From Candidatus Poribacteria bacterium (lineage in GTDB: Bacteria > Poribacteria > WGA-4E > WGA-3G), in contig CAXXLX010000001.1 of NCBI GenBank assembly GCA_963665235.2, positions 2,464,001 through 2,528,000 of the forward strand: DNA of 64,000 nucleotides, written 5' to 3'. Numbering within the stretch: the stretch's first letter is position 1; each line of letters opens with the position of its first letter. A program made the translations under genes and the position numbers. The notes below the pieces were generated by a model that searched no databases, was not told where the DNA came from, and was given only the letters and a program-made list of their open reading frames with translations. Positions 4,943 to 58,596 of this stretch are shown piece by piece.

Positions 4943-4985
4943 TCCGAAAACCTAATTGATTAAGCGTTTCAAACACGAAAGAAAA

Positions 4986-6177
4986 ATGGCAAAACTACAA
5001 TTAACGGATATAAACGTAGCTGACAAACGGGTTCTCGTGCGCGTGGATTTTAACGTGCCACTGAAAGATGGTAAAATTACGGATGAAACCCGTATTACCG
5101 CTGCTTTGCCTACCCTGCTAGACCTCATTCACAGGGGGGCGAAAACCGTTCTCGTCACACATTTAGGCAGACCAACAGTTGGGGCATCTGCTGAACGCGA
5201 GGCTCTTTCTACTGCGCCAATTGCTATAGCACTTAGCCAAAAACTAGGCAAACGGGTCGCCCATGTTGACGATTGCATCGGTGAAACTGTGGAAAATGCT
5301 GTTGAGTCGTTGGAGAGTGGCGAAGTTTTGCTCCTTGAGAACGTCCGATTTTACGCTGAAGAGATAGATAACGACCCGGAGTTTGCAAAGCAGCTTGCGT
5401 CTCTCGCTGAAGTCTATGTCAACGATGCCTTCGGCACTGCACACCGTGCCCATGCTTCAACGGAAGGGAGTGACACATTACTTAACACCGTGCGTTGCGG
5501 GTTTGCTTATGGCACGCGAAATTCATTATCTCAGCATGACCCTTGAAAATCCTGAACGCCCATACGTAGCGATTCTTGGCGGTGCAAAAATATCGGATAA
5601 AATCACACTGATTGAGAAGCTATTAGGAAAAGTTGATACGTTGCTTATCGGTGGGGGTATGGCTTACACGTTCCTCTCTGCCATGGGCGTTGCTACTGGC
5701 AATTCGCTCGTTGAAACGGAGAAACTTGACGTAGCGGCATCCCTTATTGAGATGGAAGGTTTTTCAGATACCGTGCTCCTTCCGGCCGATCATGTTGTTG
5801 GGCGCGCGTTTGCACCTGATACTGAATTAAGGATTGTTGACGATGTGCATATCGCCGAAGGGTGGCAAGGATTGGATATCGGTCCCAAAACCGTCGCTGC
5901 CTTTAGTGAACAGCTCGCTTCCGCGAAAACGGTAGTGTGGAACGGTCCTTTAGGCGTTTACGAATTTGAAAAGTTTGCTCAAGGCACAATTGCGATTGCA
6001 AAACAGATTGCCGCCGCTGAAGCGACAAGCATTATCGGCGGCGGGGACTGCGTTGCAGCGATACAGCAGGCTGGTGTCGCCGATCGGATAACACATGTTT
6101 CCACTGGTGGCGGTGCATCATTAGAATTTTTAGAGGGTAAACCTTTGCCCGGAATTACGGCATTAACTGATAAATAG
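4986..6177 (+). CDS. pgk: Phosphoglycerate kinase, split by one extra base near 5467-5470 (probable assembly error)
   Basis: [30 protein letters not shown] in one frame, then [27 protein letters not shown] in the next. Confidence 0.93.
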
Positions 6178-7642: not shown

Positions 7643-7701
7643 ATCAAAGACAATCGAAAATGTGGAAAACTAAATGACCCTGACCCCTGGTTTTAATATA
7701 A

Positions 7702-8004
7702 TACCATTTCTAATTGAAAATGTCTCTTTCTTGTAGCATAAACTTCCAGTTTGTGCGGTTCTTGTAGCATAAACTTCCAGTTTGTGCGATTCTTGTAGCA
7801 TAAACTTTTAGTTTGTGCGGTTCTTGTAGCATAAACTTCCAGTTTGTGCGATTCTTGTAGCATAAACTTTTAGTTTGTGCGGTTCTTGTAGCATAAACTT
7901 CCAGTTTGTGCGATTCTTGTAGCATAAACTTCCAGTTTGGGTCTTCCGTTCTCCGTTTCATTTCTAAACAACCGGTAATGATAGAATAATTAATAAAAAT
8001 GGTA
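7702..8004. mobile_element. MITE-like element (TACCATTT terminal inverted repeats) carrying 7 tandem 31-bp GTAG-REP hairpins
   Basis: Ends TACCATTTCTAATT...AATAAAAATGGTA; unit CTTGTAGCATAAACTTCCAGTTTGTGCGGTT from 7730 to ~7940; sister copies at 40337 and 48578. Confidence 0.85.
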
Positions 8005-8019
8005 TAAGAAGGACTCGAC

Positions 8020-10080
8020 ATGCGCTACACATCACAGCAAGATGATTGGTTAGTTCAACCCTTTTGCCAACCCGCTTCAATCCAAGAAACGGACAATCAG
8101 CTTATTCTTGAGAATGGGCTCATTCAGCGAAGGTTCGTCACCGCACCGAATTTCGCTACGGTGGATTATGCCAATCAAATTACGGAGAGCAGTCTGCTTC
8201 GTGGCATCAAACCGGAGGCAGTCCTGACAATTGATGGACAGGAATTTGAGGTGGGCGGTTTGAAAGGACAGCCCGACTACGCTTATCTTGATTCGGAGTG
8301 GATTGCGGACTTGACCAGTGACGAGAACGCGTTTCAATTTCGCGAATATCGAGTCGGTAAACCTGAACCCCCCTATCCATGGGTTCAAAGACGTTCTAAT
8401 ACATCGTCAGTCTATCCGCCAGAGGGTGTGACGCTGACGGTTGTGTTTTCATCGCCTCCATCCGCCGACTCGCTTCAGGTTTGTGTGCATTATGAACTAT
8501 ACCAAGGCATTCCCGTACTCGCCAAGTGGATTACTGTTCACAATGAGAGTCAAAAACCGATTCAACTGGATACCTTAAGCTGTGAAATTCTTGCTGTCAA
8601 CGAGCAGGAGAAACATCGGCTGCATGTTGAGAGCGATTATGCTTTCAGTGGTATGGAAACGACACAGTGGGGACCAGATGCGGATTACAAGACGCAGGTC
8701 GATTATCACTATCGGATGCCGCTGTTGATGACAAGCCGCTATCCACTCGGTCCGGGGGTATCCCTTCAACCGGGCGAGACCTTCAAGAGTTTTCGCACCT
8801 TTGAGATTCTGCATGATAGCGATGACCGCGAGCGAAAAGGGCTTGCACGTCGCAAGATGTATCGCACGGTTGCACCGCAGGTCACGGAAAATCCAATCCT
8901 CATGCACGTTCGGAGTGCTCAACCTGAGGCAGTCCGTTTGGCAATCGAGCAGTGCGCTGAGGTCGGATTTGAGATGGTGATTATGACCTTCGGGAGCGGT
9001 TTCAATGTTGAGAGCGAAGACCCGGAATATATCGCTACAATGAAGGAATTGGCAGATTATGCCCATCAAAAAGGTATTCAGCTCGGGGGGTATACGTTGA
9101 TGTGTGCTTCGCGAGGGGTGGGTGAAGACTTCAACTGTATTGACCCAGACACCGGGCAACCCGGCAGTAAGTTTGGACAGAGTGCTTGTCTTGCAAGCAG
9201 CTGGGCAGATGGTTATGTCCAACGCGTGCTGAATTTCATGGATGCAACCGGGATGGATGTCATAGAGACAGATGGCCCGTATCATGGCGATGTTTGTGCT
9301 TCAACAACGCACGCCCATCATAACAGCTTGGCGGATTCGCAGTTGCGGCAGTGGGAAACGTGTGTGAGTTTTTATCACGAGTGCCGAAAACGCGGTATCT
9401 ATATCAATTCGCCAGATTTGTATTACCTCAACGGTTCGAACAAATGCGGTATGGGGTATCGAGAAACGAATTTCAGTTTGCCTCGCGAGCGGCAAATTTT
9501 AATCGCCCGGCAGAATATCTACGATGCGACATTCGAAAAAACGCCGAGTATGGGATGGATGTTTGTCCCGTTGGTGGAATATCACGGCGGTGGACAAGCC
9601 GCAACATTTGAACCGCTTTGTGAACACCTCGATGACTATGAAGCACATCTTGCACAGAACTTCGGGAGTGGCGTGATTGCGTGCTATCGCGGGCCTCGCC
9701 TTTTTGACACGGAACAGACGAAGGTTGTTGTTAAGAAATGGGTTGACTTCTACAAAAAGTATCGCCCGATATTGGAGTCCGATCTGATTCACGTGCGTCG
9801 TCCAGATGGACGCGCTATCGATTGTGTGCTCCACGCGAACGCGCAAATCAATCCCTGCGGATTAGCGATGCTCTATAATTCTACGAATACGGTGCAACAG
9901 ACTACGCTGAAATTGCCGGTCTATTATACAGGCTTGTCTGAAACTGCTAAGATTCGTGAAAGAGAGGGAGAGCCCACACTGTACAAAATCGACCGAAATT
10001 ACAACATTGAGATTCCAATCAAGATGGAGGCGAAGAGCGTTAGCTATCTCGTTATTGAATCTACAGCAATTAGCAATTAG
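8020..10080 (+). CDS. Putative glycoside hydrolase (alpha-galactosidase/GH36-like)
   Basis: N-terminal beta-sandwich-like region (LENGLIQRRF, VHYELYQG..KWITVHN), then a barrel-like region with CLASSW and IETDG. Confidence 0.55.
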   Translation: MRYTSQQDDWLVQPFCQPASIQETDNQLILENGLIQRRFVTAPNFATVDYANQITESSLLRGIKPEAVLTIDGQEFEVGGLKGQPDYAYLDSEWIADLTSDENAFQFREYRVGKPEPPYPWVQRRSNTSSVYPPEGVTLTVVFSSPPSADSLQVCVHYELYQGIPVLAKWITVHNESQKPIQLDTLSCEILAVNEQEKHRLHVESDYAFSGMETTQWGPDADYKTQVDYHYRMPLLMTSRYPLGPGVSLQPGETFKSFRTFEILHDSDDRERKGLARRKMYRTVAPQVTENPILMHVRSAQPEAVRLAIEQCAEVGFEMVIMTFGSGFNVESEDPEYIATMKELADYAHQKGIQLGGYTLMCASRGVGEDFNCIDPDTGQPGSKFGQSACLASSWADGYVQRVLNFMDATGMDVIETDGPYHGDVCASTTHAHHNSLADSQLRQWETCVSFYHECRKRGIYINSPDLYYLNGSNKCGMGYRETNFSLPRERQILIARQNIYDATFEKTPSMGWMFVPLVEYHGGGQAATFEPLCEHLDDYEAHLAQNFGSGVIACYRGPRLFDTEQTKVVVKKWVDFYKKYRPILESDLIHVRRPDGRAIDCVLHANAQINPCGLAMLYNSTNTVQQTTLKLPVYYTGLSETAKIREREGEPTLYKIDRNYNIEIPIKMEAKSVSYLVIESTAISN

Positions 10081-10235
10081 CAATTAGCAATTGGCAAGAG
10101 TTTGTGATTCTAAACAAACTTCTGACGCGCGTCAGAGACCTCCTCCTCTTTCTCTTGTTATAGGTTTCCAACGGTTTCCAATAGCCAACAGCTCGTAGGG
10201 GTTGGGTTTCCCAACCCGCAAATAGCCAACAGTTT
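10065..10235. repeat. Heptamer-repeat (GCAATTA / TAGCCAA) flanked palindromic element containing a GTAG REP
   Basis: (GCAATTA)n GCAAGAG...CTCTTG; GTAGGGGTTGGGTTTCCCAACCC at ~10195; relatives at 24625-24758, 49763-49850, 50092-50192. Confidence 0.65.
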
Positions 10236-13615: not shown

Positions 13616-16600
13616 CTACTCGGTAATTGGCACAAAACTTGGATATTCTGGTGGAATGGAATTGTTCAACCTATCTAACATTTGGATGTAACGTTCTTTG
13701 TCGTTTGCATTCTTGCTTGCCTCAGCGATCTGTTTCCAAAAATAATCCAATGAAGAATTGGCAGATATGACACTTAAAGCATATTTGTAATTTCTTAATG
13801 CATCCTCATAGAGTTCATTCGCAATGGACGCATGTCCAAGTGTCATGACGTAGTAATAACTTGTCCCCGTATTCCCTTGTAACGCACGTTTCGCATATTT
13901 TAGTGCTGTTTCTGGAAAGAGTCCTTTTTCAAGGAGTTCTTCAGCAAACCGACGTTGGTAATGTGCCCTCTGCCCGTTGACCTCTTTCTGTCGAAGTTCC
14001 AACCACTTCGCGTTGGCAATTTCAGCTTTATCGGAATCACCCGTTTTATTGTAGAGGTCCCCTAAAATTTCGTACATGACCACACTCTCCTGCATTTTAG
14101 GTGCTATTTTTTCAAGAGTAGCAACGAGTTTGTGCGCTTGTCCTTCGTCAGCGTAAAGTTCATATATAGCCCAAATCAGTGAATTATGGGTATCTTGTCT
14201 GAAAGGTGCGTCTAATGCTCGCATATATACCGCTTCAGCATCAGCAATCAGGTTCTGTTTTATATATAAATTTGCCAATAGCATGTAGGGTGTGTCCACA
14301 TCAGGTCTAAGTTCAATCGCTTTTTCATAAGCTGCTTTTGACAATGCCAATTGTTCTGGTCCGATAGCTTTATAGACTGTTCGTGAATAAGGTTCAAGTT
14401 TTGCCTCCCCTATGAGTTTACCGTGGTGGTTAAAAGGCGAAGTATCGGAGATGCGTCCATCAGTCTCTTCGTCAAATTTCCAATAACCAATTAAACCGGG
14501 TTCATCCCCTTTGAGGTGTCTATTCATATCCGCGCGAATCTGTTGCTCAGTACGTGCAACGTTCCACAGACGCATCTCATCAATTTGTCCGACAAAAGAG
14601 GCATGCTCCCACCATTCTTCTTCATGAGAAGAGCCAATACGGAATGGAAGTGTGGTTTTACGTAGTGTCTTCGCCTGTTTAAAGTCATTTCTTCCAACTT
14701 CATAGCCGTTGATATAAAACTTCATGATGTTTTCTTTAGCATCAATGGTTCCCGCAACCTGGTACCATTTATTTTTTTCAATCGCATTTGGCGGCGACCA
14801 AATAAATTTTTGTCGTTTTCCGCCCGGGGATACATTAAAGATAAGTCTACCTTCATCAAACAACCAAAGCGTGAATTGACGATGCGAAATGTCCGGAAGC
14901 CGTTTGTCCCCTTTGAAGAACACCGCTGTATAGGTGTTTAGAAAATCTGTCGGTCTGATCCAAGCAGAAATCGTAACCTGCTCGGAGATATTATTAATGA
15001 GCTCGCTGTCCGTGATTTCCACGAAACTCCCATCTCCATCTAAGCTGAGTGCATTACTTTCAATTACTTTGTCTATCGGACGCTCCACTTTTTGAAACAG
15101 CTCACCTAACTTTAGGTACCACCGGATATTTTTAGATTGCCGGATATTTTTAGATTGCAGTTCGGTAAGTTTTTGATACTGCTTAATTGCTTGTTTAATT
15201 TGATCTGTGGCTTCATAACTTTCAGCAAGTTCCAAGATTGTGTTGGGCGCGTTAGGGTTCATCTCAACCCGTTTCAGTTGTTCCGGTATCCATTTTTCAT
15301 AGAGCTTTCCCTCTTTGGCGATTTCACGGATTGCCTTTTTTGCCCTATTTCGTGTGTCTAATCTGCTGGTTTTACTTGCCATTTCCTGATATACATCAAA
15401 AGCTTCTCCGTAACGTTTTGTTTGATGGTAGCTTTTAGCAAGTATTTCGCGCAAAGTCCCTTGAATCCCACTATCGTTATCATCTTTATCAATAGCGGAT
15501 TTGGCGAGTTCAATCGCTGGTTCGGACATCCCATTTTCAATACAGATTGTTGCGAGTCTGCCGAGAAACCACACATTATCTTTTTCGCTGTGGGATGCAA
15601 GTGCTCCTTTAGCCTGTTTGAGCATCTGTTTGGCTAGTTCAGGCTGTTTGTTTTTTTTCAATGCAGCCGCAGCATGATAGAGATAACGGACATCGTTAGA
15701 TTCTGTTTTGCCAAGGGCTTCGGACATTTCAGCAGATTTTTGATACTCCTTTTCATCCCAATAGATTTTTGCCAATATTCTGAGTGCCACCGGATTATCT
15801 CTGTTTTTTCCAAGTTTACCCTCATAATACCTTTTCAACGCTTCAAGTTTATCTTGACTTTTGAAAGCACTCATCAAAGTCAAAGTATCCCGGGCATTCT
15901 CTACATCGGACCTTGCTACAATTCCTGACGAAATAATATAGGCAGGTGCTTTATCATCTGTGTTGGAATTCACCTGCGTTTCGTAGGCATCTACGGCTGA
16001 TTCTATTTTCCCAAGTGCCACATACACCTTGAGCAATTCAGCAAAGATTCTTTCTGTCTGATAAGAATCAGTTGCCATGTCGCGTGCTCTCTTATAGGCA
16101 TCAAGTGCTCTTTCCAATTCACCGATTTTGTAAAAGTATTCGGCACGTGCTTTCTGCATCTCGAATGTGATTGTGCCATCATCTTCAGCTTTTTGTAGCT
16201 TCTCTTCCAGATTCCCATGATAGCGATAGAAACTGATCAGTTGTTGTTCAACATTCTGCCGCTCTGATGCTGATGTGGCTGATAGAATTGCCTTCTTCAA
16301 TGCGATTTCAGCAGCATCTATGTCCTCATTGAAAAAATGAAGTCTTGCAAGTTTGAGGTACGTTTGTTTATCACTGTGCCCCAATTCAATTGCTTTTTTA
16401 TAGTTGGCGATGGCTGCGGTTTCATTACCATCGGCTTCATATAGTCTTGCGAGTCGGACATAATGGACACCAACTTCCGGCTGCGTTTGAATGTATATCT
16501 GCGCGTGCTCAAGTGCCTCGTGGACTTTGCCAGCAGTTTGTAAACTGCTAACAAGCGCGTCTTGATATTCTATGTTTTCTGGGTCAGTTTCAAGCAGTTC

Positions 16601-16879
16601 ATGGTAGGTTTGTGCAGCTTTTTCGTGCTGATTTATGCGGATGTAAAGCGTTGCAAGTTGCACGCGAGATTCATCGTCTTCAGGTGCCGCTATCACAATG
16701 CGTTCGTAGATTTCTATTGCTTTTTCTATTTTGCCAAGTTTTACGAATTCTTGTGCCGCTGTGATGAATTCTTGTACCCCGCTATTTTCCGTGTCTTGTG
16801 CTTCAAGTCCTGCTATGAAAGCACCCGCTGTGATTAACATGAGCACGCCTAAGAAGAGAGACAATTTTGAGTGTGCCAT
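13616..16879 (-). CDS. Secreted TPR-repeat protein with embedded LamG domain
   Basis: Signal peptide; many A...Y.KA TPR units; internal WYQVAGT and FVGQIDEMRLWN. Confidence 0.85.
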   Translation of the reverse strand: MAHSKLSLFLGVLMLITAGAFIAGLEAQDTENSGVQEFITAAQEFVKLGKIEKAIEIYERIVIAAPEDDESRVQLATLYIRINQHEKAAQTYHELLETDPENIEYQDALVSSLQTAGKVHEALEHAQIYIQTQPEVGVHYVRLARLYEADGNETAAIANYKKAIELGHSDKQTYLKLARLHFFNEDIDAAEIALKKAILSATSASERQNVEQQLISFYRYHGNLEEKLQKAEDDGTITFEMQKARAEYFYKIGELERALDAYKRARDMATDSYQTERIFAELLKVYVALGKIESAVDAYETQVNSNTDDKAPAYIISSGIVARSDVENARDTLTLMSAFKSQDKLEALKRYYEGKLGKNRDNPVALRILAKIYWDEKEYQKSAEMSEALGKTESNDVRYLYHAAAALKKNKQPELAKQMLKQAKGALASHSEKDNVWFLGRLATICIENGMSEPAIELAKSAIDKDDNDSGIQGTLREILAKSYHQTKRYGEAFDVYQEMASKTSRLDTRNRAKKAIREIAKEGKLYEKWIPEQLKRVEMNPNAPNTILELAESYEATDQIKQAIKQYQKLTELQSKNIRQSKNIRWYLKLGELFQKVERPIDKVIESNALSLDGDGSFVEITDSELINNISEQVTISAWIRPTDFLNTYTAVFFKGDKRLPDISHRQFTLWLFDEGRLIFNVSPGGKRQKFIWSPPNAIEKNKWYQVAGTIDAKENIMKFYINGYEVGRNDFKQAKTLRKTTLPFRIGSSHEEEWWEHASFVGQIDEMRLWNVARTEQQIRADMNRHLKGDEPGLIGYWKFDEETDGRISDTSPFNHHGKLIGEAKLEPYSRTVYKAIGPEQLALSKAAYEKAIELRPDVDTPYMLLANLYIKQNLIADAEAVYMRALDAPFRQDTHNSLIWAIYELYADEGQAHKLVATLEKIAPKMQESVVMYEILGDLYNKTGDSDKAEIANAKWLELRQKEVNGQRAHYQRRFAEELLEKGLFPETALKYAKRALQGNTGTSYYYVMTLGHASIANELYEDALRNYKYALSVISANSSLDYFWKQIAEASKNANDKERYIQMLDRLNNSIPPEYPSFVPITE

Positions 16880-16892
16880 TGAGATATATTCC

Positions 16893-18950
16893 CTATTCCG
16901 GTATTTTGTTCATGGAAGAGATTTTATCCCAGTCCCACAAAAGTACAGTTCCATCTTTAGAACTACTTGCAAGCGTTTTGCCATCGTGAGAAAATCGGAG
17001 CGTTTCGATTTCATCTGAATGCCCGGGATAAGTAGCCAACCGCTCTGCTTTTTCCAGATGCCATAATTCAACTGCATAAATAGTATCATTTCTGTTCATT
17101 ACTAGTCTGTTCCCAGTAATGCCAACAAGGAGGGTTTTACTATCTGGGGAGAATGTTAAGGTATTCACCTTTGCCCACTTGAGTTGAATCAGATGCTCAG
17201 TAAGAATTGTACTGGGTTTTCGCCCGGTGTTAAGATTCCATAAATGGATTTCGGTGTGAGTGCCGATAGCAAGAATAGTGTTATCAGGTGAAAATGCCAA
17301 GCTCTGGGCACTTCCGATAGCAAGTGTCGCAAGTTTTTGACCTGTGTTTGCATTCCACACAAGGGTTTCGTTGAAATTTCCGCCTGTAGCTAGGAGCATA
17401 CTATCTGGTGAAAATGCTAACATCCTGTCACGAACCTTGGGAAAGCTCACGGTTTCACGTCCAGTACTCACCTCCCATAAACGTATTCCGCTAAAGGCTG
17501 TAGTTGTGGCGATTAGTCTGTTATTGGGAGTGAATGTTAGTGTATCCGGTCTAAATTTTACTTGGAGCGTGTCGATTTCGACTCTAGTGTTCAGATTCCA
17601 TAACCGAATTATATTAACATTTCCCCATCCGGCGGTGCGTCTCTCAACATGGTATCCGTTTCGTGCAGATACAATTGCAGCATGGGTTGGACTCATGTTA
17701 ACAAAGAGGGAGGCATCTGATGAAAGAGCCATTGCTTGGGTCAGCGCGATAGGTGCTACAGTAAATGAATTTAGTTTATCTCCAGTGTTGATATCCCATG
17801 TTTGGATTTTTCCATTAAAGGTCGCGGTGACACATAACTTGTTGTCCGGTGAGAACGCAACTGCCCGTGTGTCCATTATGTGTTCTGTAGCAATAATAGA
17901 CAATTCTTTACCTGTGTTTACGTTCCATAAGCGGATGGTACCATCTAGACTACCGCTTGCAAGTGTTTTCCCATCGGGTGCAAAGACGAGTGTATTGATA
18001 GTATGCGTATGCGCTTTAAGTGTAGTACGGAGTTGTCCTGTATGAGCATCCCACAAATGTATTGTTTTATCAATGTCACCACTTGCAAGGGTAGAATTAT
18101 CTTCAGTAAACGCTATGGCAGTAATCCATCCATTGTGTCCTTTGAGCGTAGCCCGTTCGGTGTGTGTGGCAGTATCCCACAATCGTACTATCCGCTTTCC
18201 ACCGCCAGTAGCAACGGTTTTGCCATCAGCTGAAAACGTCAGGGTCATAATTCCATGGCTGGCTCTGCGTTTCTCTTTATTTGCTTGCTTTAAAAATTGA
18301 AGAACAGATTTCGTTTTCCGAGTGAGAAAACCTTCTTGTTCGAGGGACTTTAGCGGCAATAAAGTAATTTTTCCATCTCGAGTAACACCAGCAAAGGTAC
18401 TATTATCTCTAGCACAAGCCAATGGACCGCCTACACCAGTACTTTCCTTTTGCAAAAGTCTTCTTCCGGTAGCAATCTCCCAGCGTATAAGGGTGTTTTC
18501 TTCAAGCCAATTGGCATGCAAGCCGATGAGGTTTTTCCCATCCTTTGAGAAGGTAAGGGCTACACCATCAATATTGGGATGAGAACGGAGAGTTTGAATG
18601 TTTTTACCTGTTTCCAGGTCCCACAACAGAATGACTGGACTGGAACACCCACTACTTGCAAGAATACGGCGGTCAGGGGAGAGCACTATATTGTCAACGC
18701 CACCGGGATGTGGCGTGAGTATATTCTTCACGTCTCCGGTGTTAACATCGTAAATCCAAACACCGATATCGGTACCTACGGCAAGCTGAGTCCCATCGGC
18801 CAAAAACTGCATTGTGGTAATTTTACCTTTACCGATGCGAGCTATGGCTCCGTTGGGTAAGTTAATTTGTGATTCCTGCTGCGCGTAGATAGGTGGCAGC
18901 AGCATCGAAACAGATAGGAACACAATACAAAACATTCGTTTTATCGCCAT
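16893..18950 (-). CDS. Secreted WD40-repeat beta-propeller protein
   Basis: Signal peptide; repeated GH...FSPDG..LASGS.DGTIRLW units. Confidence 0.9.
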   Translation of the reverse strand: MAIKRMFCIVFLSVSMLLPPIYAQQESQINLPNGAIARIGKGKITTMQFLADGTQLAVGTDIGVWIYDVNTGDVKNILTPHPGGVDNIVLSPDRRILASSGCSSPVILLWDLETGKNIQTLRSHPNIDGVALTFSKDGKNLIGLHANWLEENTLIRWEIATGRRLLQKESTGVGGPLACARDNSTFAGVTRDGKITLLPLKSLEQEGFLTRKTKSVLQFLKQANKEKRRASHGIMTLTFSADGKTVATGGGKRIVRLWDTATHTERATLKGHNGWITAIAFTEDNSTLASGDIDKTIHLWDAHTGQLRTTLKAHTHTINTLVFAPDGKTLASGSLDGTIRLWNVNTGKELSIIATEHIMDTRAVAFSPDNKLCVTATFNGKIQTWDINTGDKLNSFTVAPIALTQAMALSSDASLFVNMSPTHAAIVSARNGYHVERRTAGWGNVNIIRLWNLNTRVEIDTLQVKFRPDTLTFTPNNRLIATTTAFSGIRLWEVSTGRETVSFPKVRDRMLAFSPDSMLLATGGNFNETLVWNANTGQKLATLAIGSAQSLAFSPDNTILAIGTHTEIHLWNLNTGRKPSTILTEHLIQLKWAKVNTLTFSPDSKTLLVGITGNRLVMNRNDTIYAVELWHLEKAERLATYPGHSDEIETLRFSHDGKTLASSSKDGTVLLWDWDKISSMNKIPE

Positions 18951-20140: not shown

Positions 20141-22339
20141 TTATTTCCGTATTAACATCTTGCGCGTAACGGTGAAATCGCCTGCGGTGAGGGTATAGAA
20201 ATACACGCCGCTTGCAACAGACTCACCGAGTGCGTTTTTGCCATCCCAATAGGCGGCACGGTTTCGACTGTGATAAATACCGGCACGTTGATGTCCTAAG
20301 TCTAAATCCCGCACGACGCGGCCGTTGATGTCATAAATCGTCAACTTTACGTCTGATGCTTTGGCCAGTTGGTAGGGTATCCAGGTCTCTGGGTTGAATG
20401 GGTTTGGATAGTTCGCTAAAAGTTCGGTCTCTTTAGGTGTTAGTGCTGCCAAGAGCTGCTCTAAAAAGAGAATACCCTGTTGAAAGGTTGCATCTGTCAA
20501 ATTTAGCTTCTGGGCTTGGGATAGCCACTGCTGTACATCCGATTTTCTAAACATGTTTTCATAGCGCGCCCAAGCTGCTGGTGCAGCAGCCTTATTACCC
20601 AATGCGCCTGCAACTAACACCAGATCCACAATATCAATAATCCCATCCTTATTGACATCTGCCGGATTGCGCGGACCAGGAACAGTAGACGTGATATTAT
20701 CCAAGATATCATACCAAGCACGTTGCTGACTACTAGATAAACCACCACTGCTATCTGCTGCTAAATCAAGTTCAAAATTTAAAATGCTAATCATAATCAG
20801 GTCGTCGATATCAATAACCCCATCCTTATTAACATCTCCTATTTCCATTATGTGTGTTACAGAACTTTTACCGAAACTTGCGGCGACGAGTGTCAAATCT
20901 AAAATGTCTACAACACCATCAAGGTTAACATCCTCTCGTAGTCGTGGCCCCCCAACAACCATTGAATTTACTTGATCAAAGTGGGGAAGGTGTTTACCAA
21001 CACTATTAACTATTCTTGAGCTGGACAAGGTTAGGGTTGATTCTTTGATAGCAATAAATTCAAATGTTAGGGTTGCAAGAGTGCCGTCACCGCTGCTGCT
21101 GTCATTAACAGAGGTCGCGCCAAGTAGAACTTCATTTCCATCGACAACTGGGGCCACAAAAAACGAATCGTCCGGTAAATAATCTCCGTTCGCACTTGAA
21201 ACATAGCGAAGTGCCGTTGTATCGAAAAGCACCTTAGCTTGAAAACCAGTGATGTCTTTACCTGAAGTAATATTGATGTTAAGAGTTAGCCTGTCTCCGA
21301 TAGCTGCGGCATCTATTGGTAATGCCGTGATGTTCACACGGGTAGCAGGTGCCTTCCACAATCGGATGGTTTTTTCAACACCTCGGATGGTTTTGTCAGA
21401 ACTCCCACTTGCCAGCATTGAACCATCCGGACTGAACGATACGCTCCTGACCCTATCCGTATGCCCCGTGAGTGTTCTGATGTGTTGTCCCGTAGTCGCA
21501 TCCCACAAGCGGATGGTTTTGTCAGAACTCCCACTTGCCAGCATTGAACCATCCGGACTGAACGATACGCTCCTGACCCTATCCGTATGCCCCGTGAGTG
21601 TTCTGATGTGTTGTCCCGTAGTCGCATCCCACAAGCGGATGGTTTTGTCAGAACTCCCACTTGCCAGCAGTGAACCATCCGGACTGAACGATACGCTCCT
21701 GACCCAATCCGTATGCCCCGTGAGTGTTCTGATGTGTTGTCCCGTAGTCGCATCCCACAAGCGGATGGTATTGTCAGAACTCCCACTTGCCAGCAGTGAA
21801 CCATCCGCCGGACTAAACGCTACGCTATTGACCCAATCCGTATGCCCCGTGAGTGTTCTGATGTGTTGTCCCGTAGTCGCATCCCACAAGCGGATGGTAT
21901 TGTCCCCACTCCCACTTGCCAGCAGTGAACCATCCGCCGGACTAAACGCTACGCTACTGACCCAATACGTATGTCCTGTGAGTGTTCTGATATGTTGACC
22001 CGTTGTCGCATCCCATAAGCGGATGGTGTCGTCCCCACTCCCACTTGCGAGCAGTGCCCCATCCGGACTAAACGCTACGCTCCAGACAGAAGCCGTATGT
22101 CCTGTGAGTGTTCTGATATGTTGACCCGTTGTCGCATCCCATAAGCGGATGGTGTCGTCCCCACTCCCACTTGCGAGCAGTGCCCCATCCGGACTAAACG
22201 CTACGCTCCAGACATAATCCGTATGCCCTTTAAGAGTCGTATAGGAAATCTCGTGGGCAAAGGTGTTGGGTAAATAGATCGTTAAAATCAGAAGTATCAT
22301 CAAAGAAATGGAAATTTGCGTTTTTTTCATTACAAACAT
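20141..22339 (-). CDS. Secreted WD40 + cohesin + dockerin/EF-hand-like + C-terminal sorting-type domain protein
   Basis: Seven near-identical WD40 units (126/129 bp); cohesin-like GFQAKVLFD...GDGTLATLTF; DVNxDG repeats; LANYPNPFNPETWIPY...ASGVYFY tail. Confidence 0.9.
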   Translation of the reverse strand: MFVMKKTQISISLMILLILTIYLPNTFAHEISYTTLKGHTDYVWSVAFSPDGALLASGSGDDTIRLWDATTGQHIRTLTGHTASVWSVAFSPDGALLASGSGDDTIRLWDATTGQHIRTLTGHTYWVSSVAFSPADGSLLASGSGDNTIRLWDATTGQHIRTLTGHTDWVNSVAFSPADGSLLASGSSDNTIRLWDATTGQHIRTLTGHTDWVRSVSFSPDGSLLASGSSDKTIRLWDATTGQHIRTLTGHTDRVRSVSFSPDGSMLASGSSDKTIRLWDATTGQHIRTLTGHTDRVRSVSFSPDGSMLASGSSDKTIRGVEKTIRLWKAPATRVNITALPIDAAAIGDRLTLNINITSGKDITGFQAKVLFDTTALRYVSSANGDYLPDDSFFVAPVVDGNEVLLGATSVNDSSSGDGTLATLTFEFIAIKESTLTLSSSRIVNSVGKHLPHFDQVNSMVVGGPRLREDVNLDGVVDILDLTLVAASFGKSSVTHIMEIGDVNKDGVIDIDDLIMISILNFELDLAADSSGGLSSSQQRAWYDILDNITSTVPGPRNPADVNKDGIIDIVDLVLVAGALGNKAAAPAAWARYENMFRKSDVQQWLSQAQKLNLTDATFQQGILFLEQLLAALTPKETELLANYPNPFNPETWIPYQLAKASDVKLTIYDINGRVVRDLDLGHQRAGIYHSRNRAAYWDGKNALGESVASGVYFYTLTAGDFTVTRKMLIRK

Positions 22340-24612: not shown

Positions 24613-24757
24613 GGATGTCTCCTTTGGCGATTAGCAATTGGCGATTAGCGATTAGCAATTGGCAAGAGAAAGAAGCCTCTGACGCGCATCAAAATTGTAG
24701 TCAGAATCACAAACTCTTGCTATTAGCCAATTGCCATTAGCCAACAGCCACTAGCCA

Positions 24758-40261: not shown

Positions 40262-40336
40262 AATATGTATTCCGTTAATTCCAGCAATGGCTATTAGAAA
40301 CCGTTGGCTGACTGCTAATTCTGGTAGATTATGTTA

Positions 40337-40613
40337 TACCATTTCTAATTGAAAATGTCTCTTTCTTGTAGCATAAACTTCCAGTTTGTGCTTTCTTGTA
40401 GCATAAACTTCCAGTTTGTGCTTTCTTGTAGCATAAACTTCCAGTTTGTGCTTTCTTGTAGCATAAACTTCCAGTTTGTGCTTTCTTGTAGCATAAACTT
40501 CCAGTTTGTGCTTTCTTGTAGTCTTGCTTTCTTGTAGCATAAACTTCCGTTTCTTCCGTTCTCCGTTTCATTTCTAACAACCGGTAATGATAGAATAATT
40601 AATAAAAATGGTA
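40337..40613. mobile_element. Second copy of REP-carrying MITE (5 full 30-bp units plus degenerate units)
   Basis: Same ends and body as 7702-8004. Confidence 0.85.
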
Positions 40614-44189: not shown

Positions 44190-44449
44190 CGGAACGTCCT
44201 TTACATCAGGAATTTATATCATAAATTTTATAATACCAGATTTAGCAGCAGTTGTCAACTTAAGTTTTAAGGAGGGGTGTGTAAAGTTTTTGTACTATGA
44301 TAGAGGGAAGGATGGAAGATTGGAAGATTGGAAGGGGGGAAGGATGGATTTCGCGCGTGTGTTGTCTGAATTGCGGATTTATCGGATTTATCGGATTTTA
44401 AGATGCGTAACAATAGAAGGTTTGTGATTATGAGCTAGTGTGTTGTGTT

Positions 44450-44991
44450 TTCTATAAAGATACTGCCCCGCTGGGGCTAGGTTGTGTTGTGTTTTTGTGT
44501 TTTCTATAAAGATACCGCCCCGCTGGGGCTAGCTTGTCTGGCACTTGTGCTTCTATAAAGATACCGCCCCGCTGGGGCTAGCTTGTCTGGCACTTGTGCT
44601 TCTATAAAGATACCGCCCCGCTGGGGCTAGCTTGTCTGGCACTTGTGCTTCTATAAAGATACCGCCCCGCTGGGGCTAGGTTGTGTTGTGTTTTTGTGTT
44701 TTCTATAAAGATACCGCCCCGCTGGGGCTAGCTTGTCTGGCCCTTGTGCTTCTATGATACCGCCCCGCTGGGGCTAGCTTGTCTGGCACTTGTGCTTCTA
44801 TAAAGATACCGCCCCGCTGGGGCTAGGTTGTGTTGTGTTTTTGTGTTTTCTATAAAGATACCGCCCCGCTGGGGCTAGCTTGTCTGGCACTTGTGCTTCT
44901 ATAAAGATACCGCCCCGCTGGGGCTGGGGCTGGGGCTAGCTTGTGTTGTGTTTTTGTGTTTTCTATAAAGATACCGCCCCGCTGGGGCTAG
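44450..44991 (+). repeat. 11 copies of TTCTATAAAGATACCGCCCCGCTGGGGCTAG joined by two recurring linker types
   Basis: Linkers GTTGTGTTGTGTTTTTGTGTT or CTTGTCTGGCACTTGTGC recur, so this is not a CRISPR array. Confidence 0.88.
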
Positions 44992-45036
44992 CTTGTGTTT
45001 GTCTGGTGTTCACATTAAACATGTCGCCCCGATAGC

Positions 45037-45570
45037 TAGTCCCGTAGGGACTTGTGATATATCTATAGAAAGATGTTTCCCCCCCTAGTCCCGTATTGTC
45101 TGGCGTTCACATTAAACATGTCGCTCCGATACGCCTAGTCCCGTAGGGACGATATATTTATAGAAGCAGATGTTGACCCCTAAACATTAAACCGCTAGTC
45201 CCGTAGGGCGATATATTTATAGAAGCAGATGTTTCCCCAACCCCTAGTCCCGTATTGTCTGGCGTTCACATTAAACATGTCGCTCCCGATACGCACGCTA
45301 CCTAGTCCCGTAGGGACGATATATTTATAGAAGCAGATGTTTCGACAACCGCTAGTCCCGTAGGGACGATATATTTATAGAAGCAGATGTTTCAGAGACA
45401 ACCTTATGCTAGTCCCGTATTGTCTGGCGTTCATATGAAACAACCCGCTAGTCCCGTAGGGACGATATATTTATAGAAGCAGATGTTTCCCCAACCCCTA
45501 GTCCCGTATTGTCTGGCGTTCACATTAAACATGTCGCCCCGATAGTCCCGTAGGGACGATATATTTATAG
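45037..45570 (-). repeat. Mosaic array of CTAGTCCCGTAGGGACGATATATTTATAGAA (inverted variant of the same unit)
   Basis: Reverse complement TTCTATAAATATATCGTCCCTACGGGACTAG aligns with the left-array unit; full and half copies interleaved. Confidence 0.8.
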
Positions 45571-45839
45571 AGAAAACGGACATTTATTTTCAAACTCACG
45601 TTTAAGTACAAAAATTTTACACACCCTTGACTTCACAACTTTCTAATGATATACTAAACATTGGTATCCTCTCTTTTGAAAAAAGTTTATTTAGAAAGGA
45701 TACCATTTTTTTATTTCCCTGACAACAAGGCTTTGTACAAAAACTTTACACACCCCTTGTCAAAAAATAGAGTTGACAAATGCCTATATCTTTCGGTACA
45801 ATTAAGGTAAGACTATATTTTGACACATGGAGGCAAAAA

Positions 45840-48482: not shown

Positions 48483-48577
48483 CTATTTAAATTTATTTAT
48501 ATACGTAATTATAACATGCGCGAGGCATAAAGTCAACTTTTTTATCAGATTCTGTCTCTCTGAAATTTGCTATATAC

Positions 48578-48693
48578 TACCATTTTTATTAATTACTCTA
48601 TCATTACCGGTTGTTAGAAATGAAACGGAGAACGGAAGACCCAAACTGGAAGTTTATGCTACAAGAAAGAGACATTTTCAATTAGAAATGGTA
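48578..48693. mobile_element. Minimal 116-bp copy of the MITE with a single REP, inverted orientation
   Basis: Reverse complement of the 7702 and 40337 ends with one GTAGCATAAACTTCCAGTTTG unit. Confidence 0.85.
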
Positions 48694-49316
48694 TACAATG
48701 CGCGATTTGTGCTATACTATACTAAACTTTGGACAATTTTAGGGGTGGGTAACGTTCTGGTCAAAGGGATAGGTGGAAGGGTGGAGCGTGTGTTGTCAGA
48801 ATCGAGGATTATCGCGGAGGACACGGATTACGCGGATTTTAAGGTGTGTATGCGTCAAGGTTTTGGGATTAAGTGGTGTTGGTTTTTTTGTCTGAATGCA
48901 CGTCGCATTTGGGCGAATACGCCGCAAATCGCGGATTACACAGAGGACATAGAGAACGCGGAAAGAAGAGGGGTTTGGGTGAAATCTATAAACATATCGC
49001 CCCGATGAGGCTAGTTTGTGGGGTGGTTGCATTTTCTACAGAGCGGGGAGGTCGCGTGCACAGCACGCTCCTACAGAAGAGGGGTGTTGAACAAACGGCG
49101 AAAAATAGGGAGAAATAAAGACCCTCGCCCCAGATTATATTTTTTTCTGGAATATATATGAAAAAGCTGGTATAATACTCTGTAAGTAGTTTATTAAGGT
49201 TTATTTCAAAACCGAGGTAAGATTCTCAAACGATATAATCCCCCCCGGCAGGGCACGGTATTTTTAAAAACTGACCGACCCACCGAGGAATATCAATAAG
49301 GGAAGGAAATTTATCT

Positions 49317-49766
49317 ATGACAAATAATAAGGAGACACGCTCCGCGTTGTTCACTGTTCGAGATGGTGAGGACGCTCTAATTCGTCTCATATTCATTTTC
49401 TATTCAATATTAGGAGGGATCCTCCTCCATCAAAGAATACTTGAGGGGCGGACGTGGTCTGAGGCATTTTCCGTGATGCTAGAGCATGGCGGTGAAGCGT
49501 TGACCTGGGCTACAAGTCTCACCCTAACTATAGAAGGAGTTATGATTATGTTTTCACGTCTTCAAGACCATCGGGACAGACGGAAAAGACGCTTCGAGGA
49601 AGCACGAGCCGAAGGGATAACCCAAGGCAGAGCCGAAGGGATAACCCAAGGCAAAACCGAGGTTTACCAAGAAATCGCTGAATGGAATAAAAGGCGGCTT
49701 GACGCACAGGCACGCAATGAACCATTCACCGAACCGGTCCCCGAATCCCCCGACACTACTCATTAG
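49317..49766 (+). CDS. Hypothetical membrane protein with Rpn-like AEG-repeat C-terminal module
   Basis: Hydrophobic N-terminal segments; RAEGITQGRAEGITQG; internal GAAGGAG+ATG at 49533-49550. Confidence 0.65.
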   Translation: MTNNKETRSALFTVRDGEDALIRLIFIFYSILGGILLHQRILEGRTWSEAFSVMLEHGGEALTWATSLTLTIEGVMIMFSRLQDHRDRRKRRFEEARAEGITQGRAEGITQGKTEVYQEIAEWNKRRLDAQARNEPFTEPVPESPDTTH

Positions 49767-49858
49767 CGATTAGCAAATGGCGATTGGCAAGAAATATAAG
49801 AGACCTCTTTCTCTTGCTAATTGCCACCTGCCACCTGCCAAATGCCAAATAAGGAGGT

Positions 49859-50095
49859 ATGATTATGCTTTCACGTCTTAAAGATCACCGGGAGAGACGG
49901 AAAAGACGATTCGAGGAAGCAAGAGCTGAAGGCAGAGCCATAGGCAGAGCCCAAGTCATAGCCGAAGCGAAAGCCAAAGCGGAAGCCGAGATTTACCAAG
50001 AAATCGCTGAATGGAATAAAAGGCGGCTTGACGCACAAGCACGCAATGAACCATTCACCGAACCGCTCCCCGAACCCCCTGATACCACTCATTAG
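49859..50095 (+). CDS. Stand-alone duplicate of the C-terminal module of the preceding gene
   Basis: AAGGAGG RBS; near-identical to residues 76-149 of the upstream ORF. Confidence 0.7.
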   Translation: MIMLSRLKDHRERRKRRFEEARAEGRAIGRAQVIAEAKAKAEAEIYQEIAEWNKRRLDAQARNEPFTEPLPEPPDTTH

Positions 50096-50502
50096 CGATT
50101 AGCTATTGGCTATTGGCAGAGGTTTGTGAGGCTAAAAGCATATCTGAAGCACGGTAGAGACCTCCTCCACTTGCTAATTGCCAACTGCCAATTGTTATAC
50201 TAAACTTTGGACAATTTTAGGGGTGGGTAACGTTCTTGTCAGTGGTGTGGTTGCATTTTCTATAAACATATCGCCCCGATGGGGCTAGTTTGTGGTGTGG
50301 TTGCGTTTTCTATAAACATTCCGCCCCGATGGCGAAACCGCGCTTTTGCACATTGGAGGTTATTTTTCTCCTATTTGTCCTTGTGTGAGAAACATTGAGA
50401 AAAATCGGAAATGCTTTGAAAATCGGGCATCAGACTCACGGATATTGTCCAAACTATAGTATACTATACTTTGGATTTTAACACTATTTGGAGGAGAATT
50501 AC

Positions 50503-55945: not shown

Positions 55946-56580
55946 GGGGTGTGTAAAGTTCTTGTACTTATGTTAACGTGAGCTTGATAATAAATATCCG
56001 TTTGCTCTAAACCTTTTTCATCGCGAAAAAAGCGGTATACTTGTAGCATAAACTTCCTAGTTTGTGCTGTTTTTTGCTAAAACTACCACAGAACGCTCTA
56101 GGTCAAAACTTTTTTCAAACTTGCATTATGTTACATCTTTTTTGTCTGAATGCACGTCGCATTTGGGCGAGTACGCCGCAAATCGCGGATTATCGCGGAG
56201 GACACGGATTTCGCGGATTTTAAGCTGTGTATGCCTCGAGGTTTTGTGATTAAGAGGGGGTGTTTTTTCAGTAGTGACGGACAGTTGGGTTGTCCGATGC
56301 CTTTCAATTCTTCTTTATCACGCGAGCTTGATAATAAATGCCCGTTCGCGCCAAACGCTTTTCATGGTAAAAAAAAGCGGTATACTTGTAGCATAAACTT
56401 CCTAGTTTGTGCCGTCTTCGCTTGTAGCATAAACTTCCTAGTTTGTGCTGTCTTCGCTTGTAGCATAAACTTCCTAGTTTGTGCCGTCTTCGCTTGTAGC
56501 ATAAACTTCCTAGTTTGTGCCGTCTTTTGATAAAACTACCGCAGAACACCGCAGGTGAAAACTTTTTTCAAACTCACGTC
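55946..56580. repeat. Composite repeat: TIR end plus duplicated module with GTAG-REP units (1 + 4 copies)
   Basis: Starts GGGGTGTGTAAAGTTCTTGTACTT, matching the right end of 44273-45628; CTTGTAGCATAAACTTCCTAGTTTGTGC at 56040 and 56385-56520 (36-bp period). Confidence 0.7.
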
Positions 56581-56869
56581 TTTATACATAAAATTCTCTT
56601 TATACATAAAATTCTTCTAAAGTGAACGTGTTAGTCTACTGCCCGTGAAAATTTCTGAATGTATCACGAATTTTCATGGCTATAGATTCAATGGTTCCGA
56701 TATCAAGGGTCATTATATCAGTCTCTTCCAACTCAGTCCTGACGCTTTTTGACATCATGCCGTAGATGAAATTATGAGATGTGAACCAGTTATCTATTTC
56801 CATCTCAGGAATTTCGCGTTCAACTTCTACTACCCTCATCAAAATCTTCGGTGTGGAGACCCCGTTGCT

Positions 56870-57973
56870 TTAGCACGGGGAGGAAACACCGCTCCTATAT
56901 TGAAAGTTCAAGCGTGTGAGGACTTGAAAATCTGTGCGTTTCGCACCCGTTGTGAGGCGTTGACCTTCTAAGCTATAGATAGAAAACACCCCTTTTGCAT
57001 TAATACCCGTAATAGGATGTCCTCGGTGGGACCTCGGACGTGTGATCCCGTGTTTGCTGTGCTTTATCACCGTGTTTTTCACAAGTCCGTTGCCTAACAC
57101 AGTCCCGCCATATCTTGACCGTATTCCGCCCTTTGCTGGTTGTTCTCGGTGCAAGTTACGCCTTGCTACGGGTATCGGGGATATGCAAAACACGGCTGTA
57201 TTGTCGGGTTTGAGTGCCATCGCTTTCTTTGTGTCACCATTGACAACCGAATGTGCCATCACCCAACTATCAACGCAGTGTGCATAGAAGTCATCAGAGA
57301 GTTTGTCTTGGCTCTTCTCTAATCCTAATGCCTTCCTCCGCGCGGAAGTCCACCTGCCTTTATAGCAAAACACATTTCCAACGCCATAGCGTGCTATCAA
57401 CTCAGAGACAAACCAGCGTTTACCAACCTCCAACGGACTAAAAGCTGTGTTCCATCGCTTCTTACCCGGTTTTGTTCTTGCCTTGATGTCCTCCACACAG
57501 ATTTTTGTGACAGGATACAAGTCAGACAACCAATCCAGGATGCGGAGTTTCCAATCCCAACGGGCCCGGGTGCCTGCGGGGAGTTTCTGTCTGTTCGCAC
57601 CTTTGTTGGTGCGGTTCTTGCGGTTGGGACACTTCCGAGAACGTCCGAGGTCCCACCGAGGACATCCTCTCCCTCTGCGGAGTTCACGTCTTTTCTCAAC
57701 CTTCTTTCCAACTTTGTTATGTGCATCTGCCTGCACGTTCAGATACGTATGCGTCGCAGATTTGACGGTAAATCCCTCTTTCTTACTTCCAGGATCCACA
57801 CCGACAACAATGTCTTGTGTTTCTCTATCACTCGGTTCTTTGTTGAGACGGACACAATAGACACCGTTGTTCCAATAAGGTGTTGCTTCACCGCGTTTGA
57901 CAAGTTTCCTTGCACGTGCAGCATGCATCGGCATCAGCTGTTGTCCGTCGTTTGTTTTGACTGGCACAAACAT
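56870..57973 (-). CDS. isrB: IsrB RNA-guided nickase (PLMP/RRXRR + split RuvC, no HNH)
   Basis: QLMP..ARARKL; RuvC-I VGVDPG; Arg-rich helix; RuvC-II VEDI; RuvC-III HCVD; 367 aa with no HNH motif. Confidence 0.85.
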   Translation of the reverse strand: MFVPVKTNDGQQLMPMHAARARKLVKRGEATPYWNNGVYCVRLNKEPSDRETQDIVVGVDPGSKKEGFTVKSATHTYLNVQADAHNKVGKKVEKRRELRRGRGCPRWDLGRSRKCPNRKNRTNKGANRQKLPAGTRARWDWKLRILDWLSDLYPVTKICVEDIKARTKPGKKRWNTAFSPLEVGKRWFVSELIARYGVGNVFCYKGRWTSARRKALGLEKSQDKLSDDFYAHCVDSWVMAHSVVNGDTKKAMALKPDNTAVFCISPIPVARRNLHREQPAKGGIRSRYGGTVLGNGLVKNTVIKHSKHGITRPRSHRGHPITGINAKGVFSIYSLEGQRLTTGAKRTDFQVLTRLNFQYRSGVSSPC

Positions 57974-57984
57974 AAGTTTGTTTT

Positions 57985-58249
57985 CTCCTTACGGAAGTAA
58001 AACGGATGTGAGAGAAAACGGATGACCGTAGGTCATTTGTTTTCCCTCTTTCCTTCCGTCGGGTATATATTGCCCCATCCAGATCAGGGGTTCGTAGTGG
58101 AATCAGACTTGGGGAGCATCCGAAACATACTTTAGGCTGCCACACCCAGAACCCCCGATATATTACTGTAGAAAGTAGTTTAACTTGTGGATTGACTGCT
58201 TGGCAGGCAGTTCGCACAAGCCCCCACGCTTTAGCGGGGGGTTACTGAC
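57985..58249 (-). ncRNA. Putative omegaRNA scaffold (guide from the flank above 58249)
   Basis: About 270 nt non-coding region between the element end and isrB, containing GGATGCTCCCCAAGTC typical of IscB/IsrB leaders. Confidence 0.7.
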
Positions 58250-58596
58250 TCTAACCATGTATTCATCAAGTTTCATGGGTAGAGCCTGCATGAGTGTAAA
58301 GTGATAGCGTATGTATTTGATTTCGACTAATGACCAATCTATATCAAAACCTTTTGATTCTTCTTTCAAAACTTCTTCAAATTTTTCCTCAAACTTAACT
58401 TCCATGATTACCTCCCCTTATTCATTATTTTGCTGCTAACCCGCCTACTACGTGGACAGTTTTTACCGTGCAGCACTGGCATCCGTCGCCAGCAGTCGCG
58501 CTTAATTAACGCGATAATTTAATTTTACACTAGGAGTGTAACACATATTTTGCCACTTGTCAAGTGAAAATAGGTTCGCTCCACCCTTGCGCCGGG

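Follow-up and report, generated by a model that had tools for sequence, protein, structure and literature searches.

An identical 24-bp in-frame insert found twice, in opposite orientations, in an isrB gene of Candidatus Poribacteria, and its possible spread by templated copying

Short repeat units inside bacterial genes have been described in several forms, and they are the background for a 24-bp sequence, AGGATGTCCTCGGTGGGACCTCGG (the 24-mer), which occurs twice and in opposite orientations within one isrB gene of Candidatus Poribacteria, a sponge-symbiont bacterium. The gene lies in a stretch of 64,000 nucleotides (contig CAXXLX010000001.1, positions 2,464,001 to 2,528,000), which was analysed as a whole and is called the window here. 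The closest described systems are the repetitive extragenic palindromes (REPs) that sit inside open reading frames (ORFs), among them REPs tagged with CGTC or GTAG, and the Rickettsia palindromic elements (RPEs) RPE-4 and RPE-6. According to PMC3733652, these are likewise short units (20-40 bp) read through as extra residues, at times two in one ORF and at times at approximately the same site in related genes. The original prediction for this locus had called the insert far smaller than miniature inverted-repeat transposable elements (MITEs) or RPEs, which should be softened since REPs of 20-40 bp inside ORFs are already in print. The junction of the 24-mer even spells CGTC (ACGT, then C). However, the CGTC REPs outlined in that same text have stems of 8-9 bp opening with A/T pairs, loops of 4-5 nt and a CCA tail, whereas the 24-mer has a stem of 4+3 bp with a 2x2 mismatch, a stability at the level of chance and a tail reading ...ATCCT, and its CGTC arises only across the junction, where it overlaps the stem. 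The stable imperfect palindrome of 20-40 bp that marks a REP is not present. Distribution differs as well: intragenic REPs and RPEs belong to families that are multi-copy, genome-wide and mostly extragenic, whereas the known copies of the 24-mer are in one gene family of one genome.

Three further systems deserve comparison. Elhai and colleagues reportedly described in 2008 the small dispersed repeats (SDRs) of cyanobacteria, which look mobile, are about 21-27 nt long and so are far shorter than MITEs; these are said to be present in many copies, mostly intergenic or nested in other repeats, and such a distribution is not seen for the 24-mer. The insertion sequences (ISs) of the IS200/IS605 family and the derived palindrome-associated transposable elements (PATEs) resemble the 24-mer, at least in its two window copies, in that no target duplication is made and a fixed tetranucleotide lies beside the insert, and the element hosting the isrB gene is itself of this family. 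IS200/IS605 elements need a hairpin at each end in addition to cleavage sites, tens of nucleotides in all, as in IS608. The 24-mer is too small for such ends: where a PATE has subterminal hairpins at both ends, there is a single weak hairpin in 24-28 nt, and the target of the resident IS is a TGATGA region, not ACGT. The third comparison is with template-switch (quasipalindrome) mutations and templated insertions mediated by microhomology, which likewise produce an exact reverse complement of nearby DNA from a short palindromic microhomology (here ACGT), giving a perfect inverted repeat. Mutation by template switches between inverted sequences is well established (PMC7202029, PMC8604942); the cases described there mostly perfect existing imperfect repeats whose halves are separated by a few bases up to some tens, whereas here 24 nt would have been copied across 599 nt with a return homology of 1 nt. 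This locus is unusual in that the insert is confined to a single transposon gene family in a single genome, and in that one gene holds an inverted pair.

The isrB ORF is on the minus strand at 56870..57973; it is intact with both inserts and encodes 367 aa, while typical relatives have 342 aa. Copy 1 of the 24-mer, at site 1, occupies 57645..57668 on the minus strand and is read in the sense direction as GCPRWDLG (residues 103-110), at the end of the Arg-rich bridge helix. Copy 2, at site 2, occupies 57014..57037 on the plus strand, antisense to isrB; the gene reads its reverse complement as PRSHRGHP (residues 313-320), in the C-terminal domain. An ACGT adjoins each of them, at 57641..57644 for copy 1 and 57038..57041 for copy 2, and both are native, being composed of the last base of a codon (AGA at site 1, ACA at site 2) and CGT. 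Each 24-mer with its adjoining ACGT is an arm of an inverted repeat of 28 nt, 100% complementary, with a spacing of 599 nt. The insert size is exactly 24 nt, its placement being ambiguous by one base, and a target duplication is visible at neither site. When both inserts are excised computationally, the protein reads RRGR-RSRK and GITR-ITG across the two junctions. The two positions, the adjoining ACGT, the 28-bp inverted repeat, the two peptides, the restored junctions and the lack of a target duplication had been claimed beforehand from the letters of the DNA and are reproduced here. A scan of the window with up to 3 mismatches returned these two matches, while none of 100 shuffles gave any match (0/100), and the count in the window stays at 2 when the tolerance is raised to 6 mismatches. 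No piece of the 28-mer of 12 nt or longer is found elsewhere in the window. It had also been claimed that the insert keeps the frame open in both orientations. This is true and unremarkable: 13.7% of all 24-mers in the window, and 837 of 1858 GC-matched 24-mers (45%), are open in six frames, so that openness was rejected as a sign of design. The isrB ORF remained open because 24 is divisible by 3 and the sequence contains no stop codon.

Are both stretches really insertions? Proteins and genomic loci were both used to answer this question. Of 6231 candidates in the homologue search, 3382 proteins passed E<=1e-5, and the best 120 were listed; they are mostly 342 aa long, and the few with names are assigned to 'Candidatus Poribacteria'. 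After a second search, 190 IsrB proteins were gathered as cluster representatives, the carrier clusters having 5-7 members each. For the loci, 535 pattern matches were reduced to 501 relatives, and the best 80 were kept, from Poribacteria. Coding sequences (CDS) were extracted from 67 of these loci, the other 13 being dropped as they had no ORF with both marker motifs, and the site-2 region is present in 66. Across a 27-row alignment, the best 120 homologues and the 190 representatives, the GCPRWDLG of insert 1 is carried by P0001 and P0002 only, and the PRSHRGHP of insert 2 by P0001, P0007 and P0031 only, where P0001 is the IsrB protein of the window itself. In the CDS from other Poribacteria, residues in the insert columns are found in 0 of 67 at site 1 and 0 of 66 at site 2. 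Thus the gaps of 8 residues that the original prediction had proposed to look for in aligned IsrB homologues are there, and both sites are empty in the homologous CDS. Insert 1 also stands opposite a gap in the alignment with the solved IsrB structure 8dmb_P, and no other rare internal insertion of at least 4 residues was found in the IsrB homologue sets, including the 190 representatives. Both 24-bp stretches are genuine 8-codon insertions relative to homologues. Where the insert is absent, the junction at site 1 reads ACGT in 30 of 67 homologous CDS, and for site 2 the count is 3 of 66, which indicates that ACGT is gene sequence and lies outside the insert. The Arg codon at site 2 is conserved, with Arg in 176 and Lys in 10 of the 186 non-carrier proteins.

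The same data bear on the question of an assembly, adapter or polishing artefact. The assembly does have at least one likely indel error, a phosphoglycerate kinase gene split by a 1-nt frameshift near 5470-5500. However, insert 1 recurs in P0002, whose gene is on an independent contig of 36.5 kb, insert 2 recurs in two further paralogue clusters, both inserts are in frame, and the plasmid and phage collections hold no vector-like match. We consider an artefact scarcely credible.

How, then, is the insert distributed among the isrB paralogues? P0001, P0007 and P0031 all come from the same 4,364,704-bp contig, that is, from one genome, and among the matches listed in either search there is no isrB cluster from this contig that is without insert 2. 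A profile of the C-terminal regions of the three insert-2 carriers was run against longer proteins. Of 7999 candidates, 1249 passed E<=1e-10; the carriers came first, with 282, 277 and 271 bits, followed by a protein with 236. Overall identity among the carriers is 66-73%. All three have the same eight inserted residues, but identity over the 20 residues flanking them on either side is 65-90%, and this indicates that the insert is younger than the paralogues. The residue following insert 2 (position +1) is Ile in 3/3 carriers; among the 186 non-carriers it is Leu in 164, Ile in 20, all of a distinct ISGF subfamily, and Val in 2. P0001 and P0031 have in common two further rare residues, Ile at -3 (10 of the 186 others) and Thr at +2 (3 of the 186), and over the next 20 residues they are each other's best match (0.90). 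A conversion tract seen at the protein level would thus be marked by I(-3), I(+1) and T(+2) in the pair P0001/P0031 and by I(+1) only in P0007. P0001 and P0007 form a mosaic, their identity falling from 0.91 in the N-terminal part to 0.65 in the middle and rising again to 0.85 in the end part, and the paralogues in general are mosaics. The same site filled in three diverged paralogues with a common flanking Ile points to homologous transfer and not to repeated transposition.

These observations give a scenario in which a single indel spread among isrB paralogues by gene conversion and an inverted copy was then made by template switching at ACGT. It is the explanation we favour, holding belief and doubt in about equal measure. 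As part of it, the spread would be confined to the isrB paralogue family and would proceed by homology- or microhomology-dependent copying, not by transposition. The scenario would run as follows. In an isrB copy of this Poribacteria genome, 24 bp would have entered once at the C-terminal-domain site, after ...ACA CGT. Gene conversion would then have moved the insert, with at least the next codon, into other isrB paralogues of the same genome, as the protein data suggest. Finally, during replication, a growing strand that had just copied the ACGT of site 1 may have jumped to the palindromic ACGT of site 2 on the complementary strand, copied 24 nt backwards and returned, which would leave an inverted second copy and a perfect 28-bp inverted repeat. 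An insert templated in this way should be the reverse complement of nearby DNA, and it is, over 28 nt with the arms 599 nt apart. The entry junction has a microhomology of 4 nt (ACGT), or of 5 nt if the native next base of the donor is C.

Several points weigh against the templated spread. The return junction of the template switch has a microhomology of 1 nt only, and 599 nt is a long distance for such a switch. It does fit within the size of a bacterial Okazaki fragment. The immediate flanks of P0007 are not unusually similar to those of the other carriers, ranking 47-72 on the side before the insert and 45-57 on the side after it, so its conversion tract could only be a very short one. An alternative source of the Ile at +1 is entry of the 24 nt between C and TT of a CTT codon, and CTT is the codon at +1 in 33 of the 66 empty homologues. 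The 62.6 kb of the window outside isrB bounds the copy number only at about 200 or fewer per 4.36 Mb, and the points drawn from P0002, P0007 and P0031 rest on protein sequences. The origin of the first 24 bp is not accounted for by the scenario. The order of events implied by P0002 is a weak point as well, and this protein deserves a closer look.

P0002 has 332 aa, is encoded on a separate contig of 36,530 bp, is 97% identical to the window protein and retains insert 1. When site 2 of the window gene is emptied and the gene is read in its +1 frame, the last 21 residues of P0002 align to it without gaps, 18 of 21 being identical. Just before them stands VRGPTE, which is what 'GT' joined to the first 16 nt of the element encodes in the +1 frame. 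Thus the P0002 gene appears to be empty at site 2 and to carry, 19 nt upstream and after another CAC, a partial copy that shifts the frame. The partial copy seems to include two bases of the native flank of site 2. Judged from the protein, this donor flank would make it a templated, misaligned copy and not a discrete transposed unit. P0002 is possibly an intermediate or a decay product. Since it has insert 1 with site 2 empty, either the donor in cis has been lost or the donor was a paralogue.

The main competing explanation is transposition. Could the 24-mer be a REP-like micro-transposon of 24 bp, moved as single-stranded DNA by a Y1 transposase (of the REP-associated tyrosine transposase (RAYT) or IS200 type) into ACGT without duplication? 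The isrB genes would then serve as dispensable, many-copy targets in which it landed repeatedly. There are good reasons to take this explanation seriously. Two identical and sharply bounded inserts lie at otherwise unrelated sites, both by ACGT and with no duplication, and a common 4-nt flank would be met by chance about once in 256. Presence and absence are polymorphic across homologues, the source genome is rich in other small repeat families, and REPs of similar length, at times two per ORF, are known from the text of PMC3733652 compared above. The host IS has hairpin ends of the IS200/IS605 type, which suggests that a Y1 transposase is probably active in the lineage.

The searches give a different picture. 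The 80 related isrB loci, 691,021 bases in all, contain nothing closer to the 24-mer than matches with 7 mismatches, as many as for the reversed-pattern control, and its 17-mer core has 0 matches there with up to 3 mismatches; the original prediction had proposed to search relatives, and nothing beyond chance appeared. An exact 20-mer core has 0 matches in 185,579 species genomes, a collection to which the source genome does not belong, and the plasmid and phage collections hold matches at the level of chance only (E 8-9). Where a REP family would have many dispersed and mainly extragenic copies, the 24-mer has 0 copies outside isrB in the window, the 80 loci and these species genomes. The candidate that the 24-mer is a fragment of the IS ends, the omega-RNA or nearby repeats was also rejected, as there is no common 12-mer or longer piece and no near match in the 80 loci. 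The fold predicted beforehand, GTCC..GGT...ACC..GGAC, is indeed returned, at -3.6 to -6.2 kcal/mol in four 40-nt contexts, but these energies are within the range of shuffled sequence (z-scores from +0.52 to -0.57, with 54-137 of 200 shuffles folding at least as stably), so the hairpin was rejected as a sign of a substrate for HUH transposases. No Y1 transposase was found by Pfam among 52 ORFs of the window, which were picked from 93 of at least 110 aa, the remainder being overlapping antisense frames; a crude scan for Y1/IS200-type motifs in the window and the 80 loci found nothing.

The flanks tell against the micro-transposon as well. A 4-nt target cannot account for the same site being filled in 3/3 paralogue clusters, as the isrB gene has 6 ACGT sites, of which 2 are occupied. 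The contexts of sites 1 and 2 are alike only in ACGT, and the common Ile with the rare flanking residues points to transfer by homology. The original prediction had asked whether the 3' flank is always ACGT; it is native beside both copies in the window (2/2), but the copy in P0002 is partial, includes 'GT' and, as far as the protein tells, lies at a place natively without ACGT. The hairpin-ended, HUH-mobilised and target-specific element of the original prediction is thus not supported, given the lack of copies outside isrB in the sequences searched, a hairpin at chance level, no Y1 gene found in the window or the 80 loci, and flanks of the homology type. A low-copy mobile element is a possible alternative, and the micro-transposon in general strikes us as unlikely, though well worth keeping in view. 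Its boldest form would make the 24-mer the smallest kind of bacterial transposable unit: one hairpin and 24 bp, placed by ACGT with no duplication and never breaking the frame or bringing in a stop, a hyperparasite in the nuclease genes of another transposon family, whose inverted copies build a 28-bp repeat able to flip or silence isrB. This form seems rather improbable. If a mobile element were nevertheless the true explanation, it would be a very small in-frame transposable unit targeting transposon genes.

Another thought is that a larger element entered the isrB sites repeatedly and left 24 bp on its removal, as an excision footprint or homing scar. A site-specific element, or a homing one, would be consistent with one genome having the same site filled in three paralogues, and the inserts are precise and of fixed length. 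But no larger occupant is seen at either site in the 190 proteins and 67 CDS, and the halves of the 24-mer are no inverted copies of each other, unlike the ends of elements with terminal inverted repeats. Sites 1 and 2, again, have nothing beyond ACGT in common, and footprints are unusual for bacterial elements. We regard such a scar as highly improbable.

It may also be asked whether the additions are kept for the sake of the protein. If the 8-residue loops were functional in IsrB, for example by altering contacts with the target-adjacent motif (TAM) or the RNA, they could have been retained and spread as helpful features. The ORF is intact with both inserts, every invariant column of the family is retained, including the Asp, Glu and His positions of the nuclease motifs, and the peptide of insert 2 is unaltered in 3 paralogues. 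In an AlphaFold model (27-row alignment, mean predicted local distance difference test (pLDDT) score 67), insert 2 is placed in a loop between strands 309-314 and 330-333, and insert 1 follows directly after helix 88-101, in a stretch of low confidence. However, the confidence of the model is low at both sites (pLDDT about 33-62), insert 1 breaks the end of the conserved Arg-rich helix, and the copy in P0002 causes a frameshift. Moreover, both 'loops' are one and the same DNA read on opposite strands, which is a signature at the level of DNA and not of protein. A selected protein feature is therefore very unlikely in our judgement.

What would follow for the gene and its product? Two loops of 8 residues each are predicted, one where the bridge helix ends and the other within the C-terminal domain. 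Folding of the messenger RNA (-245.1 kcal/mol; z -5.1 relative to 20 shuffles) predicts that the two arms pair, in the centroid structure as well as in the minimum-energy one. A long-range duplex of 28 bp is predicted in the isrB messenger RNA and in the single-stranded transposition intermediate. The inverted arms are also a predicted substrate for inversion of the 599-bp segment. Inversion as a switch of protein variation was considered and rejected: the frame would be open for only about 82 codons past insert 1 (ORF 57042..57287, plus strand), and the inversion would be an off switch at most. If the templated copying is true, the locus gives a natural example of a short indel homogenised across diverged IS copies, and of an inverted templated insertion making a long perfect inverted repeat in a coding gene. 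It would further mean that an RNA-guided nuclease of the IscB/IsrB line can keep an open frame with 8-residue additions at its bridge helix and in its C-terminal domain, which would be useful for engineering. Under either the templated or the mobile explanation the effect on the organism is probably minor, and the case overall is a real but modest oddity.

The host gene is assigned to isrB as follows. The only Pfam family matched by the protein is RRXRR (PF14239, E 4.8e-26), the solved structure that comes closest to it is the IsrB chain 8dmb_P (E 4.4e-22), with IscB chains matching the N-terminal part only, and a stretch with a weak HEARO match lies upstream. In keeping with an IsrB, the protein has the N-terminal PLMP/RRXRR region and a split RuvC, and no HNH domain. 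By tblastn this is the only isrB copy in the window. The candidate omega-RNA scaffold is just upstream of isrB, at 58063..58249 on the minus strand; its match to Rfam HEARO (RF02033) is weak (27.1 bits, where the gathering score is 83; E 0.0062), and it is 70-86% identical to the regions upstream of isrB in related loci. A literature search found no paper joining IsrB with Poribacteria. The isrB elements are strongly amplified in this group, with 501 relatives in the species-genome collection, and a single chromosome, OZ244616.1, contributes 15 of the best 80 loci.

The gene is carried by an IS200/IS605-like IS without tnpA, at 56840..58249 on the minus strand. Similarity to other copies runs from GTCAGTAAC, at 58249, into the conserved TGATGA at 56836..56841 (minus strand), which marks the IS boundary as an IS target or TAM region; among 22 aligned copies, 21 have TGATGA there and the remaining one has TGACGA. 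From this conserved boundary it follows that the resident transposition machinery is not aimed at ACGT. Two subterminal hairpins can be read from the sequence, one at the omega-RNA end (58222..58243) and the other at the opposite end (56862..56882), where it overlaps the final isrB codons. To place the 3' end of the IS, the interrupted host ORF was rebuilt in frame by comparison with an uninterrupted homologue in locus L010; the end would lie inside TGATGA with ATGA as flank and could be off by about 2 nt. The interrupted ORF is small, with parts at 58250-58405 and 56636-56839 and no Pfam match at E<=1e-4, and its homologue in L010 (7050-7420) is of about 120 aa.

The window contains several other repeat families. 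Tandem arrays with a unit of 30-36 nt (CTTGTAGCATAAACTTCC(T)AGTTTGTGC...) are at 7697-7975, 40331-40551, 48570-48695, 56040-56136 and 56385-56526; they form a dispersed intergenic family in both orientations, and one array is about 300 nt from the isrB IS. Arrays of a unit of about 49 nt with a GCCCCGCTGGGGC hairpin are at 44410-44996, 48952-49019 and 50226-50343, their 32-nt core being present 14 times, and beside them a second family, CTAGTCCCGTAGGGACGATATATTTATAGAAG..., is at 45036-45586. The GCCCCGCTGGGGC and CTAGTCCCGTAGGGACGATATATTTATAGAAG repeats are REP-like, and in sequence they are unrelated to the 24-mer. Runs of a heptamer (AGCAATT or AGCGATT) with a common tail of about 50 nt occur at 10065-10100, 24619-24668, 49758-49793 and 50087-50122, and they recall the heptamer repeats of cyanobacteria.

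Among the other genes, the phosphoglycerate kinase (4956-6177) is split into ORFs 4956..5546 and 5383..6177, with the frameshift beside a GGG run; this is a likely indel error of the assembly, or else a pseudogene. Large repeat proteins of the WD40 and TPR/laminin-G types are encoded at 16893-18950, 20141-22339 and 13616-16879. The WD40 gene at 20141-22339 has tandem DNA repeats of 126-129 nt at 21301-22236.

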